The notes under the pieces: generated by a model
The model's database searches: none
The model's input: only the letters and a program-made list of their open reading frames with translations
Told to the model about the DNA's origin: nothing
NCBI GenBank assembly: GCA_965112155.1
Contig: OZ218102.1
Direction: 5' to 3' (one strand)
Length of the DNA: 64,000 bases
From: Podarcis liolepis
Lineage: Eukaryota
Position numbers and translations under genes: made by a program
In this document: one piece after another, positions 7,009 to 61,885 of the stretch
How the letters are laid out: every line of letters starts with the position of its first letter
How positions within the stretch are numbered: the first letter of the stretch is position 1

Positions 7009-7887
7009 GTAAGTCACACACGCAAAACCACTTCCACAATTTTGATTGCTATAACCAGCTGCTGCTCTTCTTGAAATTTCAAGTCTGGGCCTCATCCTGG
7101 CACTATGCCTAGGGCTGATCTCATAGCTCTTTTGTAGCAGCTGAGAAATGCTTACTACAGCTGCTATCCTGGACTGAAAAGTCCCTCAAGAAATCAAAAG
7201 TATTGAATATGGTTTTGTCTTAAGGTGGATCCTAAGATTTATTTCTGTTTGGTCATCTTTGACATGTATCACTTATGGAAGAGACTTGTTCTTTAATTTG
7301 TGCTTCCTTTACTGGAACCAGAAGGTCTAAAAAATAGCACCTTAGCTGGTAGGGCATAACCTCTAACCATCAACTCAGTCTCAAGTAGCATCCTCTTGCT
7401 TTAATGAAAAGCTTTCCAGAAACAGGTTCTCTTTGGGGCACCATGCTGTGCCAAGTTTACTAAAATTACTAAAATTGCATCCTGCTACAGTAAACTTAAA
7501 GAGGCTTACATCAATATCATTAACATACTATCAGGTTCTTGCCTGTGGGTGGAACTGACAGTGGATAACCACTCCTGTAGGAATAATGGGTGGAATTGGG
7601 AAGGCACTAGATCCTTCAGATCCCACTGCTCCCTCTGCATGCCCCCAAACCGTCCCAACACATTTTGGTTTTGGGATGTCAAGAGTTCCAAAACTGATAG
7701 GGCTGGGTTTGTGGAAGTTGTGGGGATGGGAGGATTCAGCATCAGAGCTCCCTTGAAGAAGATCTGATGTATCGTGTGACCCTCTGGGATGCCGTCCCAG
7801 AGCACTCTTTGCTGGCTTCAGCACCCCTGTAGAACATTCCATTATAACTGGTGCAGCTCCATTAACACCCATTGCTGTGTTTTGTAG

Positions 7888-8406
7888 GTGACGATATTCG
7901 TGGCATCATCAGAGGACCCCCCGGGCCTCCAGGACCACCTGGTATAGGAGGAGATGGCAGCTTGATGGCTGAATCTTACAGAAGGTCTCTAAATTCAGAT
8001 GGGTCGTATGGCAGGTCCGTAAGTTCTGCCACATCCTATGATGCATCACTTGCCACAGGGGGATCATACAGCAGCTCATTGGGAAGCAATGGAGCATATG
8101 GTGGATCTCTTGGAGCTGATGGATCTCTTGGAGCTGGTGGATCACTTGGAGCTGGTGGATCATACGGTGGATCTCTTGGAGCTGATGGCTCTTATGGTGG
8201 ATCTCTTGGAGCTGATGGTTCTTATGGTGGAGCGATTGGAGCAGGTGGATCTTACGGTGCTGGAGCAGGTGGATCTTACGGTAGTTCAACTGGAGCAGGC
8301 GGATCACAGATGAGATCTACAGGTGCAGGAGGATCCTATAGTGGCTCATTTGCTGGGGCACTGGATTACAATGAGTTGGCAGCCAGAGTGTCAGAAAACA
8401 TACAAA
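7888..8406 (+). CDS. COL17A1: COL17A1 large exon (519 nt): short collagen run plus Gly/Ser-rich NC4 domain
   Basis: ttttgtag| ... |gtaagt; ends in LDYNELAARVSENIQ (human LDYNELAVRVSESMQ). Confidence 0.95.
7974..8363 (+). repeat. Coding minisatellite, unit about 30 nt (SYGGSLGADG-type decapeptide), in COL17A1 NC4
   Basis: Repeated tatggtggatctcttggagctgatgg units. Confidence 0.9.
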
Positions 8407-9058
8407 GTAAGTATATCCATATTTTACCCCATGCTATCTAAAGTGCTGTGGACTGTTTAGAGTTTGTGTGTGTGTGTGTGTTTGGGACATGTGATTCTTA
8501 GACCATTAAGTTGTGTTCCACTCCTTTGAATATATGCAGTGTAGATTCCATGAGCTATTCTAAGGAAAAACTTGGCATTCTTTTTTGAAATGACCCTAAA
8601 AGTGCACACATGAGAAATGTTAAATTGAAACGTGCTGTATGTACCTCTGAGGGAAATCCCAGGAGCAGGTTCCTTCCTTGACTGCTAGATCTTGGATTAT
8701 CACAGCAAAACAGTTTAATATATGTGCTCAGCAGAATTGGTGCAAAAAGTTTCCCCAGAGGATCAAAACATGAAATCAGTTTCCTAACTCAGATTAGAAT
8801 CCTTCACCAGCACTAGGGCTGATGTGAGTTGTAGGCCAAAACATCTGGAGGGTACTAGGTTGGTGAAGGCTGAAGTACAATGCTTCAACTATGGGCTGAG
8901 TCTTTTTCTGGAGTGTTAAGGATGCTTTAAAAGTAGTACAGAAAAATGCCACGGCTTCAAAGGGCGGGGGGTGGGAAGAGATGCTTCCTTGAGTTCTGAC
9001 TTCATAGCAAGGATGTAGAACCGGTGGCCCTCCTGATGTTCTGAACTGCAACTCCTAT

Positions 9059-15322: not shown

Positions 15323-15713
15323 CTTAAGAGCATCAAAATAATTTCAGTCATTTATCTGAATTTTGGTTTTCTGTGGCAAAAAAGCGTTTAAGTATTTGAA
15401 GATGGCTAATATCTCTCCTCTCATTCTAATTATCAAGCAAAACATACCTAAGTCCTTCAGCTGCCATCCAAGTGGTGGCAGCTGTGGTCAGAATTGCCTG
15501 TGCTTGTGTCCTACCTACACCCTTGCTGCAGCTGGTACAAAATACAGTGGCCAGTGTGGTTTTTGGCATTAACAGCCCTTTTCTTTCAAGACACAGAAAG
15601 AACAGTGCTAGTGGAAGAAAAGTATAGATTCCTACAAAATGGGTAATGGACCACAGTACTTATTCTACAGATCTTTCTTGTAGTTTATTTTGTTTGAAAT
15701 ATATGGGCTTCCC

Positions 15714-16046
15714 TTCAGTATACCTGAAGGAGCGTCTCCACCCCCATCGTTCTGCCCGGACACTGAGGTCCAGCGCCGAGGGCCTTCTGGCGGTTCCCTC
15801 ATTGCGAGAAGCGAAGCTACAGGGAACCAGGCAGAGGGCCTTTTCGGTGGTGGCGCCCGCCCTGTGGAATGCCCTCCCATCGGATTTCAAGGTGATGGAC
15901 AACTACCTGACATTCAGAAGACATCTTAAGGCGGCCCTATTCAGGGAAGCTTTTAATGTATGATATTTTAGTGTTTTTTGGTTTCTGTGGAAGCCGCCCA
16001 GAGTGGCTGGGGAAACCCAGCCAGATGGGCGGGGTACAAATAATAA

Positions 16047-22146: not shown

Positions 22147-22272
22147 CTGCAGCTGATGTAATTCTCTAATGTTGGCTTCGCACTGCAGCTGGAGGTCTCG
22201 CATTTGATTTTCATGTTTCTGATGTTGAGCCAGTCTCTCATTTTTTTGCCTTTTTTCTTCCTGAATAGCAAA
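22147..22272 (-). CDS. SLK: SLK exon 17 (126 nt): [42 protein letters not shown]
   Basis: AG/GT boundaries; conserved sequence. Confidence 0.97.
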
Positions 22273-24926: not shown

Positions 24927-25056
24927 CTCTCATGAGTTGTTGCTTATTGTTCAGACAGTCCCGCTCAATGGTAGCTAGCTCAGTTTTTTGCTGCTGAATG
25001 ATTTTCTTTAGCGATGCATCCAGTTCTTGCTGCTGCTTCTGTACAAATTCTTGTTC
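24927..25056 (-). CDS. SLK: SLK exon 14 (130 nt): EQEFVQKQQQELDASLKKIIQQQKTELATIERDCLNNKQQLMR
   Basis: AG/GT boundaries; conserved sequence. Confidence 0.97.
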
Positions 25057-28024
25057 CTATCGGAAATTAAGCCAAATTGAGTACATTATGCATAAGTCTC
25101 AGACGTCTTAATTTGTATACAGCCTTCTTCTAAAGGATCTCGGAGCAGCCTTTTAGCTCACAACTAGCAGGTAAGGCGCAATATGCGGAGAGCGAAAGAT
25201 GCATACACTTTGCCACAAGCCAAACTTCAAACAGGGATCTGAACCTGGGTAACCCATATTCAAATCACAACATTATTTTCTAAGGGTCAATTAAAACATT
25301 TACACAGCAAGTGAGCTTGCTGTACTTACCACAGCATTTGAAGTGCTCAGCACTATAAAATGTGAGGGGAAACATGCATTTCTCAACAGTAGCAAACCTA
25401 TACTGGGAAACTAATGGGCCCTATGAGTTCTCTCTCTTTCTTTTCCCTCCACCAATTACTGCTTTTTCAGCAAACATATAATTTGGTCAATAATATATGA
25501 GACAGCCTTGCGGGCAGCCACTTGCCAGCCCAAGTTAATTCTTCGTGGGCAAGTAGCTTGTCAGATCAGTTGCTGTACCCTGCTATGTCTTTGTATGCCG
25601 GGCCATTACAGCCTTTATGCTAATCAGCAAATATGGAAAAAAACACACACAACTTAGAGAATCTTTAATTTAAGAATATTAAGTTCAAATCTTATACAAA
25701 TTTGCTTGCAAATTATTATTAATACATTTATATTAAATTACCAAGTAAACAAAATTCTGTTTAGGAAAGCAACAAATGACAAGACTAGGGCTGAGCTGCT
25801 TCAGAAAAAACTTGTTCAAAATTAAAAGAAAGCCACCCCCACCCCCAAAATTTTCTGGTTTCTTTCTTTTTGGTAGATTGTTACAGAAATAGCTGGAAAA
25901 AGTGTCCATTTCATAATCCCTTGGGGGCTAGGATTGATCACTGTCCAGTTTAGGAAACACTGCCTTTACTCTAAAAGACTTCTTGATGTTGACAAATAGC
26001 CATATCAGATTCAGTACATAGTGCTATTGTGACATGTCCATTATATGATCCATAAATGGCTGGGAGGAAGAAAGCAGGGTGGGATGAAGGTCAGAATAGT
26101 CCAAGGAACAGCAAATATAAATAAATGGCTGAAAATTACTGCAACTGAGATAGGTTTAATGTATTTTGTGGGAAGAAAATGTATATTTTCTGTCTCAATC
26201 ATTACTTTCAAGCAGAAATGGAAACTGGGGAGGGGATTTAACCCATGTAAAAAAAAGCCTTCATATAAACAAGAATATTTGCTGCACAGAACCAGCTCTC
26301 TCTTGCTATCTGTTAACAATGGATGGCAAATTACTCTTGAGAATCAATTGAACTGTCTCGATTCACTCTATGTGCGAAGGATACTGAAAAGGTTTAGGTT
26401 AGAATGTGTACATCTGTCTTTTAAAGAACATGTGAAAAGTCTGGGGAAACCTCTGGCCCACATGAATCCTCTCCAAGATAAGGATGCCTATTATATTTTC
26501 AACATTGTATTTTCATGTTTCAGAGCAAGATACCCAGACCAGGTAGAGGACACGTGACAGCTTAAAAGACCAAACACTTCCAAAATTCAAAATGCAGAAT
26601 TTACAAGATTGGCTCCTCAATGGCACTGTAAACAGTTTCACATTAGGCAACTGATGTACTTATTAAGCTGCACCATCTATAGCGTGTAATGTGAGGCTGG
26701 TAGATAAGCAAGTGCTGGGGAAATGAGGCCAATGGCTTCCAGATGCACATTTTGAACAGTGCACATACACAAGAAAAGGGCTTCCAAAGATTAACATAAC
26801 AAGTCACGTGTAGCTATTTTAATGGAAGTGGTTACATGTGAAGTATTTATCACCTATTTTGTGGAAAGGAGCTTTATGAAAACAGATGTCACAAGCTCAG
26901 AAAATAACTAGAAATATTGGCCCTACATTAGAAGTTGATCCAATCCTATACAGATCATTCCACGAACGGAAAGAAGGCTGTGTGGAAATCTAACAATGTC
27001 TGAGCACTTACACATTATTTCCAGGTGTGGGGTGGGCACATGGTATCTCTCTCGATTATATAATAAAATTTATGCAACAGGGACACGTCATGTTGAGACA
27101 GGTCCATGTTTTATGCATTGGGTAAGTCACATCTGATGTCCTTGTAGTTCAAAAGGTTCATATAAAAGGAAGACGTGTGATTTATGGACACAAATGAGAA
27201 AATAAATAACAAATCTGCAAAGTTCACCTCCAGGCCAGGTTGCACAGAAATCATCCGCCCTGATCACAATTTTTTACTTGCTAGTAATCTTCAGACAAAT
27301 TGCATCTGACCAATTTGATGAAGATGTTATCCGATGTCTGATGTTCCTACTCATCTCACAAGAACCAACAGAAAGCACCATATAGGAAGATGTGTACATC
27401 CATCAGAATTGGTCACTTCTTTTCCTAACAGCAGCTTCTTTATGCCACATGCTAACTCACTTTTAAAAGCTTCAAGGGATTAAACAGAAGGTTCTATTAA
27501 GTGGGTGGGGGAGGAGGAAAATGAGGAATCCATTTGCCAAAACCCCCCAAAATGAACTTATGTGATTCTATTTATTCATCCTCTACAGGAAAAGCACAAT
27601 GTAGCAAAGAAATTAGATGGACAATGGAACAGTGCAGCAGTAATGGTGGTGATCCTCTGTGTTTGGGGACATTAGGTTCTTAAGGTCCCTTTCCCCTTTT
27701 TGCATGCAAATTACCCCTGGTTAGCATTAACTACAATGCAACATCAAGTTTGCACCAGTGCTAAGCATGGTTAGTTTTAATCAAAACTTGAAAAGTAGAT
27801 TTTCAGTGCAATTTTCAAATCTTAGTTTAAAAACTAAGCATATTTAGTGGTGAGGTAAACATAACACCAAACTAGAGTTAACACTAACCAGAAGGGAGGA
27901 CCTGGAAGCCTACTGCACAATTCCACAGTTTAGATATCACTCTTATTATATATGTATTAGATCAATGACAAAGACATTTTCTGGAAATTATAAATTATGT
28001 AAGTGTGGAATATCTGTACAATAC

Positions 28025-28055: not shown

Positions 28056-29373
28056 TAGTTAAAGTATAGTTTCTTTTTTTAATTCTCTCCTAATGAAAGT
28101 CAGTGAGACTGAAATATATTCAACTTTGGTTAACTTGTGTTTCCTGAAAACTATAGAAAATATGCATTATTTTAAACATCCCCCCAAAACTGAAGAAAGC
28201 TTTACCTTCAGAATCATTTTTTTTTTACAAATGCTACCGTCTTCACATCAATATTAGGGACTGAACTGTCTCAACTCCCTGGAGAGTTGAAGGAAACCCC
28301 CAAAGCAAATTTCAGAGGATGAGGGGGGGGGGGCATGTGAGAGGAAGAGAGGGAGGAAAAGTTCGTAGTCTACCACTATCAAAATTCTAATGAAAAGCAG
28401 GAAAAAATGTGTAGAGACAAATCCAAAAACCCAGATCTGTAGAGACAGATGTCAACAACAAGAACAACAGATGTCAACAACAAGAAAGGTATAGGTCCAC
28501 TGTCTACTTGATGGCTTTGATGAAGTGAGACAAATGGCAAATGTACCTGCCCTTCTCAAGCAGCAATTCTGTCAAATTGCAGGAGCTGGATTATTAAACT
28601 GAAATGAAAGCAAGTAGTGTTTTAGTCCTGAGGTTTCCTCAGTTTAGATGAGTATGTTTTAGAACACAAAACATTGAGAATAACCTAGATTAGATAAAAT
28701 ATATCACCACAGCCTATTCTGTAGTTTTGTGAACGAAAGGTCAGTTGACATAGACTTCCATGTCAGGCTTGTGATCACTAACATTGTTACGCAATTAAAA
28801 GAGACAGAGAGATTTGGTATACAGCGCTGATGGGGAGCCTGGATGTTCTACAGATTCCTGTTCCCAGAGCCATGTAACAAAAGGCCATTTCAATAAAGCT
28901 TGCAAAGCAAACTTTCCACCTTCCTACTAAAATCTCAACTACCATCTGGTGGAACAGAAGAGAGAACACAAAGGTAGAAGCGGGTTTGTTTAAAAAATAA
29001 ATTACCAATACTGCACAAGGCAGAGAAGAAAAAAATGTCACAAGGGTGTTCCTTGCCCCATGAGTCAAAACTTAGGATGGCTGACTCTATAAGGGTATAG
29101 CAGGGAACACCCATTGTCAGGTGGTATCAGGAAGCATTCTGGAAAATGCCTGTTTCACTGCACACAGAAAAGCAAAACATAGCACTGGTTTCACACATGT
29201 GCTGAAAATCAACAAGTCTCATTTGCCCAGTTTGTCCATCACAATCTTTGTGCAGATGAACCCATTTTTAGATTTTTTTAAAAAATTCATCAGCACATGC
29301 GTGTCAGAGAAAAAGCAGAACAACAAGCTAGAACTACAGAGGAAACACCCAATTTTTGGCATGTTGGACTTAC

Positions 29374-29445
29374 ATCCTGCATTATTGCATTGAAGAGGGT
29401 ACATGAGGACAACTGAAAAGACTGAATCATAACCTGAGCAACGCC
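29374..29445 (-). CDS. SLK: Candidate extra SLK cassette exon (72 nt): GVAQVMIQSFQLSSCTLFNAIMQD, with internal 39-nt and 12-nt variants
   Basis: ctctgcag|GGC...GAT|gtaagt; stop-free, phase 0-0; internal acceptor cttttcag and internal donor CAG|gttatg both keep the frame. Confidence 0.7.
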
Positions 29446-30899
29446 CTGCAGAGCAGAATACAATGTACTTCCGAGGTCAGAATGCAAGCACAAACCATGC
29501 ATTCAAACACCGAACATAAGCAATAAGACTGTATGACTCATTAGTGGAGCACCTCCCTCCCTAAAAGTAGAAGTGGAGTACAGTGATGTGGGTGGAGCTA
29601 TGAGAACAAAAATTACACTGTATTCATAAAGACACCAATTGCAAAACAACGTAAAAACCGTTATGTCTTCAGTATTTATTTTATTTTGCTAGATAATGCC
29701 CTACAACCTAGTCCTATTTAACCTATATTGTTAACTCTCTGTGCCCAAAAGATATTGATGAATTTTCTCCAATATATTTAAGACTGTAGTTACTCAATAA
29801 GCCTTCATGTAGTACAATATTGGCTGGACGTACACCTTCTCAAATATCCAGTTCCAAGAGATGTGCACATTCAAATATACACAGTTGTCTTTAGAAGGCA
29901 GTAGCATACACTACTGTGAATATCTGCAAAAGCTGGATTCTGCTCCATACATGAGATAAACTGGCGTTGGACAGTCTGGCAATGCCTCCATTTTAACTCT
30001 CTTTCCTCTCTTTCACTCCCCTAACATTCCACCTGTATTTCTTTAGTGCTTTAGTGCACTGACTCCTGAGATTTCTCTGTCATTCAGGGAGTTCAGCAGC
30101 AGTCTCCTGACCCCCTCACATCCTTGTACAGAAACTGTGATACAGCTCACTTTAAAAATTTATACCTGAAGCATTACTTCAGAAGTACTTCAGTCTCATT
30201 GTACATGAATACATAGGAAGTATTCATGGATATCAGAAGTTATCTGTACTTAGTCTGGGATTTAATACCAAGACAAGGAATGTCAACAAGAAGTGAAGAG
30301 TTCTTCATAGCCTTAATCACTATATACACTGCCACACACCCAGATCCTTATATATTTCAGATGCGCTTCGTTTCAGACAGGAAATGTAATCAATAGTATG
30401 TCTGCTGCAATAGCATGCTTGGAACACAGAAAGTACAGGCAAGCCATTAAATAATGAACATGGACACCATCATGTCAACTGCATTGCCTGGTATTAAAAG
30501 ATTCAAAGGTAAGATATAATGAAAAATTGCTTATAAAAATATTATTTACTACTTTTCCACTTTGATAACGTTATTCTTTATGGTAAATGCCCTGAATAAA
30601 GTAAACATTACAGCCTGAAATTCATATCCACACCTGAATACACACTAACTACATAAATTGCATTTTTATAACTTTGGCTGTTGTTCTAACTAATCACATC
30701 TAAGTAAATGAATACTGAATAGATTGCACTTCTGTTTATATGACACGTTTGAGCTACGGTTTTAAGAATGGTCAGTCATTACAAATTAATATCATATTTA
30801 CTCAGAGGGAAAACAAAAAGCAACCACTATGGAATGGTTAAAGCTATTGTGAACAAAGCTGCTTGGTTGTTTTTAGAAGCATGAAGCTGCTGCGGTTAC

Positions 30900-31006: not shown

Positions 31007-31244
31007 CATGCAGAAGGTGGGGAAGATAACCCTTTTTCTCCACAGCAAGCATTTTATGGTGAATATGAGAGGAGCAGGTCAGGCATTATAAAGGTTATCA
31101 GAGAGCATGCATTGAAGCCAGAAGAGTTAGCTTGGCAGAAGATGGATGGAAGAAGCAGACATGCACAAAGCATTTGCGGACTGCATTCTACAAAGAAGTG
31201 CACGAGCTAATCGTATTCTAGAAACTAGTTTCATTTTGCATGCA
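31007..31244 (-). promoter_or_regulatory. Cluster of four RBFOX motifs (TGCATG) upstream of SLK exon 13
   Basis: CATGCA on + at 31007, 31106, 31160 and 31239. Confidence 0.8.
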
Positions 31245-36342: not shown

Positions 36343-36705
36343 AAAATTTAAAGGTACCCCTGACTGTTAGGTCCAGTTGTGGACGACTCTGGGGTTGTGC
36401 ACTCATCTCGCTCTATAGGCCGAGGGAGCTGGCGTTTGTCTGCAGACAGTTTCCGGGTCATGTGGCCAACATGACTAAGCTGCTTCTGGCAAACCAGAGC
36501 AGCGCACGGAAAAGCCATTTACCTTCCCGCCGGAGCGGTAACTATTGATCTACTTGCACTTTGACGTGCTTTCGAACTGCTAGGTGGGCAGGAGCTGGGA
36601 CTGAACAATGGGAGCTCACCCCGTCATGGGGATTTGAACTGGCGACCTTCCGATCGGCAAGCCCTAGGCTCTGTGGTTTAGACAACAGCGCCACCCGCGT
36701 CCCTC
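36343..36705 (-). mobile_element. Full-length Sauria SINE with a 14-bp TSD
   Basis: GGGACGCGGGTGGCGCTG head on -, TACCTTT tail; TSD tagtgtgtatgtta at 36329-36342 and 36706-36719. Confidence 0.95.
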
Positions 36706-51039: not shown

Positions 51040-51815
51040 AACATAAGTCAACTGTGTGATGCAGTAGCAGCGAAAGGGGTGGGGTGGGGGGGAAAGGTAA
51101 TGCTATTCTAGGCTGTATCAACAGAAGTATAGTGTCCAGATCAAGGGAAGTCCTGCCTTATTCTGCCTTGGTCAGACCACACATGGAGTACTGTGTCCAG
51201 TTCTGGACACAATTTAAAAAGGATATTGGCAAGCTGGAACGTGTGCAAAGGAGGGCAACCAAGATGATCAAGGGTCTGGAAACCAAGCCTTATGAAGAAC
51301 GGTTGAAGGAGCTGGGTATGTTTAGCCAAGAAAAGAGACTGAGAGGAGATTTGATAGCCCTTGAGATATTTCAAGGTGGCTATCACATGGAAGAGGGAAC
51401 AAGTTTGCTTTCTCCTGCTCTAGAGAAATGGCTTCAAGTTACAAGAAAGGAGATTCCAACTAAAGTTCAGGAAGACCTTTCTGATTGTAAGAGTTGTTCG
51501 ACAGTGGGACAGTGGTGATGGGCTCTCCTTCATTTGATGTTTTAAGCACTGGTTGTATGGCCATCTGTCATGAAGAAGAAGAGGAGTTTGGATTTGATAT
51601 CCTGCTTTATCACTACCCGAAGGAGTCTCAAAGCGGCTAACACGCTCCTTTCCCTTCCTTCACCACAACAAACACTCTGTGAGGTGAGTAGGGCTGAGAG
51701 ACTTCAAAGAAGTGTGACTAGCCCAAGGTCACCCAGCAGCTGCATGAATGTTAGTTGAGATTCCTGCATTGCAAGAGATTGAACTATGGGTCGTTTTCAA
51801 TTGTACAGTTCTATA
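51040..51815 (+). mobile_element. CR1 LINE 3' fragment with a nested SINE 3' end (about 51572-51745, -)
   Basis: [17 protein letters not shown]...YCVQFW...[16 protein letters not shown]; insert has a (CTT)n tail and is flanked by catgaa repeats. Confidence 0.9.
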
Positions 51816-61109: not shown

Positions 61110-61885
61110 TTTAAATGATAGTTTTGCAATTTAAAATACACATCAACAATTCCTTTTACATTGACATATGTCTTCTACATTATTTTTCCCTGCATATTTG
61201 CATACTTTAAATAATAATTATTGACTTCCCTCTACCTCTTAACAGCTTCTTCTCACTTTATTTCATTTTCTTTTGTACCATGTCAAAATCCTAACAAACC
61301 TTTCTTTACAGCAAAAGCCTCCAAAGGTGATAACCACCATGGTGTATTTGGTTCTAATAACTTTTTGGTAACATTCCCAGACTGAGTATTTTCTAATTAT
61401 ATGCTCGAGGAAGCCTCTATGTGCTTTCACTCTGTTATAGCCCAAATACCCCTGCCAGCCGAATCTATTATCCCACCCCTCTATGTCCAATGTATTTGTG
61501 TTTTTCAAAATCATCCATTCCTTTGTCGAGCAAAGACATACAGCTTCATAGTATAATCTGAGGTCTGGCAATGCAAAGCCCCCCTCTGTCCTTTTTCACC
61601 GTCAAAAGTTTATACTTAATTCTAGGTTTTTTGCCTTGCCATATGAACTTTGCTAGTTCTTTCTGCCACTATTTAAAGCAGCTTGTCCTGCTTATTATAG
61701 GGATCATTTGGAATAAGAATAGCATTTTTGGCAGCACTGACATCTTGACAGTCAAGATTCTTCCCCATAACAATAGATTTAGTCTACTCCAAATTTCCAG
61801 GTCTTTTTTTATCTCCATCCATACTTCCACATAATTATTGATATATATATATATTTGTAGAGATCCAAATTCCTAGATATTTGAT
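61110..61885 (-). mobile_element. Degenerate L1-clade LINE ORF2 fragment
   Basis: GGFALPDLRLYYEAVCL...EG...FGWQGYL and IKYLGIWI motifs, with frameshifts. Confidence 0.85.

Follow-up and report, generated by a model that had tools for sequence, protein, structure and literature searches.

Here a 72-nt stretch within the SLK gene of the lizard Podarcis liolepis (minus strand, 29445-29374 of a 64,000-nt genomic sequence, termed here the window) is identified as a genuine SLK exon, an identification that we regard as close to certain: the peptide that it encodes, GVAQVMIQSFQLSSCTLFNAIMQD, has hardly changed among predicted isoforms ranging from sharks to mammals, so that the stretch is in all likelihood an exon whose use is optional. 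The overall reading, held with moderate confidence, is that this is the lizard copy of a shark-to-mammal exon that is included or skipped as a whole unit, that is predicted to place a hydrophobic insert at a hinge within the protein and that may be governed by an RBFOX-type switch. The exon is not a new kind of system; it is already annotated and, apparently, uncharacterised.

The minus strand of the window carries SLK: the large central exon shares 93% identity with SLK of Zootoca vivipara in a protein search, the named matches to that exon are all SLK-type, and exons 10-14 translate in frame. (The exon numbering is that of the human convention, also used in a paper on SLK splicing.) Exon 12 (33909-33730) and exon 14 (25056-24927) are constitutive and are the upstream and downstream partners, respectively, of the 72-nt exon; between them lies exon 13 (30992-30900), the known 93-nt, ESRP-dependent cassette bearing a nuclear localisation signal (NLS). 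The 72-nt exon is located between exons 13 and 14--that is, 1454 nt downstream of the former and 4317 nt upstream of the latter--and all four exons are in phase 0. Elsewhere in SLK, the RefSeq X1 and X2 forms of many squamates, lacertids included, differ by one residue, which suggests a conserved 3-nt alternative splice site. The plus strand holds, from 1 to about 18300, Gly-X-Y collagen exons of a gene convergent with SLK, presumably COL17A1 judging by synteny; one of these exons (7866-8441) contains a long Gly/Ser/Ala/Tyr repeat tract. Segments at 51060-51518 (+), 15628-15963 (+), 61263-61595 (-) and about 36350-36700 resemble decayed LINE reverse-transcriptase frames and a SINE.

The bases and positions quoted in the initial annotation are all present on the minus strand, and the three readings that it offered, of 72, 39 and 12 nt, are each stop-free multiples of three in phase 0, the phase of exon 12, exon 13 and the start of exon 14. 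The 72-nt unit has the properties of a conserved, frame-preserving cassette: AG/GT ends, a length that is a multiple of three, no stop codon and a phase matching that of its neighbours. Its 3' splice site (29446-29480, -) ends in ctgcag immediately before 29445 and has a modest pyrimidine tract, with TGC at -10 and -5; a branch-point-like CTGAC, which is a consensus match only, occurs upstream at 29480-29476 (-). Its 5' splice site (29368-29373, -) reads GAT/gtaagt, with GAT ending at 29374. Genomic open reading frames (ORFs) of other vertebrates that read through the exon place a Gln codon just before the peptide in all cases listed, and Val-Ser directly after it; these flanking residues would fit a retained CAG acceptor and a GTNAGY donor. 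A search of the lizard's own genome indicates that the region is single-copy and found no paralogue. One automated goby SLK model in UniRef has the 72-nt exon plus nine residues read from the intron, as would arise from a downstream donor.

A search with the lizard reading frame over the exon returned 63 matches among 76 candidates, the majority being named isoforms of SLK. The proposal that SLK intron 13 harbours an extra in-frame cassette, used alone or with exon 13, is borne out by isoform models across vertebrates, and that search recovered orthologous peptides in sharks, sturgeons, eels, teleosts, frogs and birds; turtle and snake SLK predictions likewise contain the 24-residue peptide, and a second search added mammals, namely marmoset (A0A5F4WIM2) and goat (A0A452EZX9). 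In the predicted SLK proteins the 24 residues begin exactly where exon 12 or exon 13 ends, and the start of exon 14 follows them directly. The lizard exon shares position, length and phase with its counterparts in predicted isoforms of zebrafish (XP_005156929.1), zebra finch (XP_012430027.5), bamboo shark (XP_072413385.1), sterlet (XP_033886911.1), gopher snake (XP_070802321.1), marmoset and goat, and it shares 19-23 of 24 residues with those compared. The surmise that some automated annotations might already include the exon was also correct, inasmuch as RefSeq and UniProt carry it in isoforms predicted for many vertebrates.

Two sets of isoforms, consisting throughout of automated gene models rather than proteomic data, were tabulated. 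The first, which is enriched for the 72-nt exon, comprised 228 proteins, 197 of which span exons 12-14 (31 lacking an anchor were dropped): the 72-nt exon occurs alone in 130 and together with exon 13 in 14, exon 13 occurs alone in 26, both are missing from 22, and the remaining 5 are odd models. The second set was chosen through another exon and comprised 200 reptile and bird proteins, of which 187 span the region (13 were dropped): 66 have neither exon, 112 exon 13 alone, 8 both, and 1 the 72-nt exon alone, the nine carriers of the 72-nt exon being eight sea-turtle models and that of the gopher snake. The gene models of other vertebrates thus fall into four isoform classes--neither exon, exon 13, the 72-nt exon, or both--and the orthologous exon is both included and skipped across these automated transcript models.

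The lizard peptide is identical to those of sturgeon, eel, frog and finch at 23 of 24 residues and to those of shark and zebrafish at 22 of 24. Mean identity of the peptide is 92% over seven lineages (shark, sturgeon, zebrafish, bass, frog, finch and a bovid), as against 86% for the 24 flanking residues on each side and 62% for exon 13 in the same lineages. By these peptide comparisons, the 72-nt unit is conserved beyond chance and, as aligned here, is more conserved than the adjoining constitutive coding sequence.

The exon is absent from the 15 of 20 lacertid cluster members listed, which cover five species, and among the squamate models examined a single one, from the gopher snake, includes it; the exon is likely missing from lacertid gene models. 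At codon 21 (29383-29385) the lizard has Ile, and the snake model and a squamate-type ORF have Val, where Gln is usual in predicted vertebrate isoforms (11 of the 15 variants compared); the gopher snake peptide has several further changes. Because squamate copies drift at conserved positions, selection on the exon may be relaxed in squamates. Such substitutions, together with the lack of the exon in the listed lacertid models and its presence in just one of the squamate models examined, are what would be expected if an exon that functions in other vertebrates were a fading relic in lacertids, rarely or never spliced. We nevertheless consider this unlikely: in the lizard copy the reading frame is open, the two outer splice sites are intact and 23 of 24 residues are kept; one snake model does include the exon; and contigs from a close relative differ from this DNA by 0.9-1.4% here versus 2.3-2.6% in the other pieces listed, a weak indication drawn from four runs of one species (P 0.04-0.21).

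Contigs from four runs presumed to be RNA of one related organism (4 of the 24 runs listed) were followed from exon 14 through the candidate. They cross both candidate splice sites uninterrupted, with a mean word depth of 3.7-5.6, a measure that cannot rank parts of the gene; exon-14 contigs have depths of 70-138 in three of these runs and are lacking in the fourth. No contig joint or loose end occurs at 29445, 29434, 29412 or 29374, and none occurs at the 5' end of the constitutive exon 14 either; at 24927, the other end of exon 14, contigs are joined to the next exon by loose ends. In one run, loose ends flank 25232-25264, in the intron preceding exon 14, which suggests that the organism of that run has an insertion there that this DNA lacks.

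The surroundings of the exon suggest how its inclusion might be controlled. Both flanking introns carry the (U)GCAUG motif expected of an RBFOX-regulated exon: a TGCATG (29501-29496, -) 56 nt upstream of the acceptor and a GCATG (29300-29296, -) 74 nt downstream of the donor. RBFOX motifs upstream of an exon usually repress its inclusion and those downstream usually activate it, and the -56 motif, being in a repressing position, points the opposite way to the one at +74. Translated flanks from mammal-type and fish-type read-through ORFs have Ser-His-Val downstream of the exon, which is compatible with a retained GCATG. A motif scan located four further copies of TGCATG upstream of exon 13 (31007-31244, -; starting at 31244, 31165, 31111 and 31012), a cluster lying within about 250 nt of exon 13 and far above the background of 0.52 TGCATG per kb on this strand. 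RBFOX proteins might then repress exon 13 through the four upstream motifs and promote the 72-nt exon through the downstream GCATG at +74. A switch of this kind, turning on the 72-nt exon in non-epithelial cells, is a reasonable conjecture from motif positions, if one that we would place slightly short of probable; the tissue expressing the 72-nt form would most readily be muscle or heart, with neurons next and some other tissue a little behind.

Exon 13 provides the natural comparison. Like it (HsaEX0060174, MmuEX0043706, DreEX6061391; SLK-202 versus SLK-201), the 72-nt exon is a phase-0 cassette, adjacent to it and with the same C-terminal insertion point. Exon 13 encodes 31 charged residues with an NLS, is epithelial and ESRP-dependent, has been well studied and is 62% conserved; the 72-nt exon, in contrast, is uncharged, hydrophobic, 92% conserved and unstudied. 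ESRP dependence of exon 13 in human, mouse and zebrafish is recorded in rows of the supplement to PMC5703972. The listed models of zebrafish, carp, bamboo sharks, two frogs and the gopher snake have one exon, the other or neither, and so fit use of the two exons in separate tissues. The pair is not strictly exclusive, however, because there are also models with both, from sturgeon, bass, white shark and sea turtles, and the two occur together in 14 of the 197 and 8 of the 187 models tabulated above. Nor does the pair show the sequence similarity or the steric block of mutually exclusive exons: the inserts are 24 and 31 residues long and unlike in composition, and a 1454-nt intron separates them.

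The peptide encoded by the 72-nt exon is hydrophobic (GRAVY +0.33 to +0.67) and lacks Lys and Arg, in which it differs from the flanking sequence as well as from exon 13; that of finch exon 13, by comparison, has a GRAVY of -1.2 and 8 Lys/Arg. It belongs to no Pfam family and has no match in the PDB. The whole-protein score of the Pfam PKK family is 206 with the insert and 191 without it, and the first PKK repeat could not be usefully aligned to a profile made from the second. An amphipathic-helix reading of the peptide was discarded, as it stands at chance level (62% of shuffled peptides match equally).

AlphaFold2 was applied to frog SLK with and without the insert (60 and 66 aligned sequences). 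Without it, helices at 782-887 and 898-1004 are separated by a 10-residue break (888-897), within which the exon 12/14 junction falls; with it, the helices extend over 782-889 and 912-1028 and the break (890-911) is 22 residues long. The insert itself occupies residues 894-917, the last six of which prolong the following helix, the rest being of low confidence. The frog models are weak overall (mean pLDDT 54, pTM 0.31, with 891-911 below pLDDT 50), and their long helices have pLDDT values in the 80s. The insert is thus predicted to sit at a hinge between two helices of about 110 residues each in the C-terminal coiled-coil region. That hinge would accept either the basic, NLS-bearing insert of exon 13 or the hydrophobic insert of the 72-nt exon. 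Because the peptide is nearly invariant within a flexible segment, a binding motif is suggested; the insert would most likely form a short docking surface, changing the location of the kinase or its binding partners, a role that is proposed tentatively.

A more specific possibility is that the insert is a nuclear export signal opposing the NLS of exon 13. The peptide matches the class 1c and class 2 export consensus patterns, and the exon 13 insert bears an NLS and controls nuclear localisation according to PMC5453322 and PMC12423296. Yet when the residues of the peptide were shuffled 20,000 times, 55% of the resulting sequences fitted an export class too, and skipping of exon 13 is, according to PMC12423296, already sufficient to render SLK cytoplasmic, so that an export role appears decidedly improbable.

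The initial annotation had gone further, reading the exon as a composite in which an inner donor defines a 12-nt, SRRM3/4-dependent neural microexon (GVAQ; 29434-29445, -; donor CAG/gttatg) and an inner acceptor (ttttcag) defines a 39-nt form (29374-29412, -). There is something to commend the inner sites: an in-frame AG/GT is present in the candidate exon and absent from exons 11, 12 and 14; CAG/gttatg looks usable as a donor, having 8 of 11 consensus matches; the SLK donors at 22147 and 24357 likewise begin with gtta; TGC occurs at -10 and -5 of the outer acceptor; and automated annotation is prone to miss very short exons. Neither short form, however, appears in any of the 428 proteins, none of which matches the 4-, 13- or 20-residue forms; 389 of them show the start of exon 14. 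Moreover, the inner donor amounts to a Gln-Val codon pair, in place of which goat has Gln-Ala, Astyanax His-Val and the snake Pituophis Gln-Ile, and the inner acceptor to a Gln codon, which is His in Pseudophryne; inner sites are therefore lost in these four while the whole exon is retained. The AG-free zone of the inner acceptor is only 7 nt. The 72-nt exon contains four in-frame CAG codons, two of which the initial annotation used, and SLK is Gln-rich, the constitutive exons 11, 12 and 14 containing 5, 8 and 5. The inner splice sites are not beyond chance. The composite reading is accordingly regarded as very unlikely, and it is highly probable that the 72-nt exon is used as a whole unit only.

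The proposed regulation by SRRM3/4 fares no better. Microexons are classed in PMC12626424 as 3-27 nt in length, or as long as 51 nt under a broader usage, and the supported unit, at 72 nt, is longer than either. TGC within -20 to -5 occurs at 486 of 2170 YAG sites on the minus strand (22%), so the two UGC motifs of the outer acceptor are weak evidence; mammal-type flanks read Ser-Asp/Asn-Pro-Gln, which makes TGC impossible at -10 or -5, whereas translated fish-type flanks can hold it at those positions. No row for slk, slka or slkb occurs among the 708 zebrafish neural exons of all lengths in the PMC12626424 supplement, and zebrafish slka models do include the 72-nt exon; the list is an indirect test, and it would likewise omit an exon that is used in muscle too or that has low coverage. 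The supplements of ASCOT (PMC6952364) have no Slk row, and these two absences lower the probability of a purely neural, SRRM3/4-driven exon. In sum, the 72-nt exon resembles SRRM3/4 neural microexons in being frame-preserving, highly conserved and provided with UGC near its acceptor, and differs from them in its length, in its absence from the zebrafish neural list and in that the UGC positions are not kept in mammal-type flanks.

Very unlikely, too, is that the peptide is conserved only because the RNA is constrained (by its structure, by editing or by densely packed splicing elements), as the apparent conservation of the flanking intron in read-through translations might suggest: the folding of the exon is unexceptional (z = 0.03), all of the 25 longest inverted repeats lie clear of it, and most substitutions are conservative.

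The openly accessible literature covered here yielded no paper on the 72-nt exon or its isoforms; VastDB, subscription papers or bioRxiv supplements may well record it, together with values for tissues. SLK was not found in the accessible portions of the supplements of PMC5630039 (figure PDFs and Table S4), PMC12626424 and PMC6886504 (part); it appears at gene level only in that of PMC4750973, and only as exon 13 among the matches listed (5 of 7) from that of PMC5703972. The papers on SLK splicing consulted here describe two coding forms, with and without exon 13, one of them putting the number of coding isoforms in human at two; the exon 13 switch is linked to nuclear localisation, PLK1 phosphorylation, apoptosis and the epithelial-mesenchymal transition in these papers, PMC5453322 and PMC12423296 among them. 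Because RefSeq and UniProt models already contain the 72-nt exon, what is gained here is the recognition of a gap between annotation and literature, together with an exon that is likely missing from lacertid gene models.

If this interpretation is correct, gel-based assays of exon 13 may have mis-scored the 72-nt exon, since the two differ by only 21 nt. A second, more tightly conserved exon at the same hinge would mean an overlooked form of SLK with its own partner or location. Such a form may, though we suggest this with some reserve, constitute a third class of SLK isoform in jawed vertebrates, mammals included, in which, in neurons or muscle, a 450-million-year-old exon puts a hydrophobic segment for docking in place of the basic, NLS-bearing insert of the hinge.
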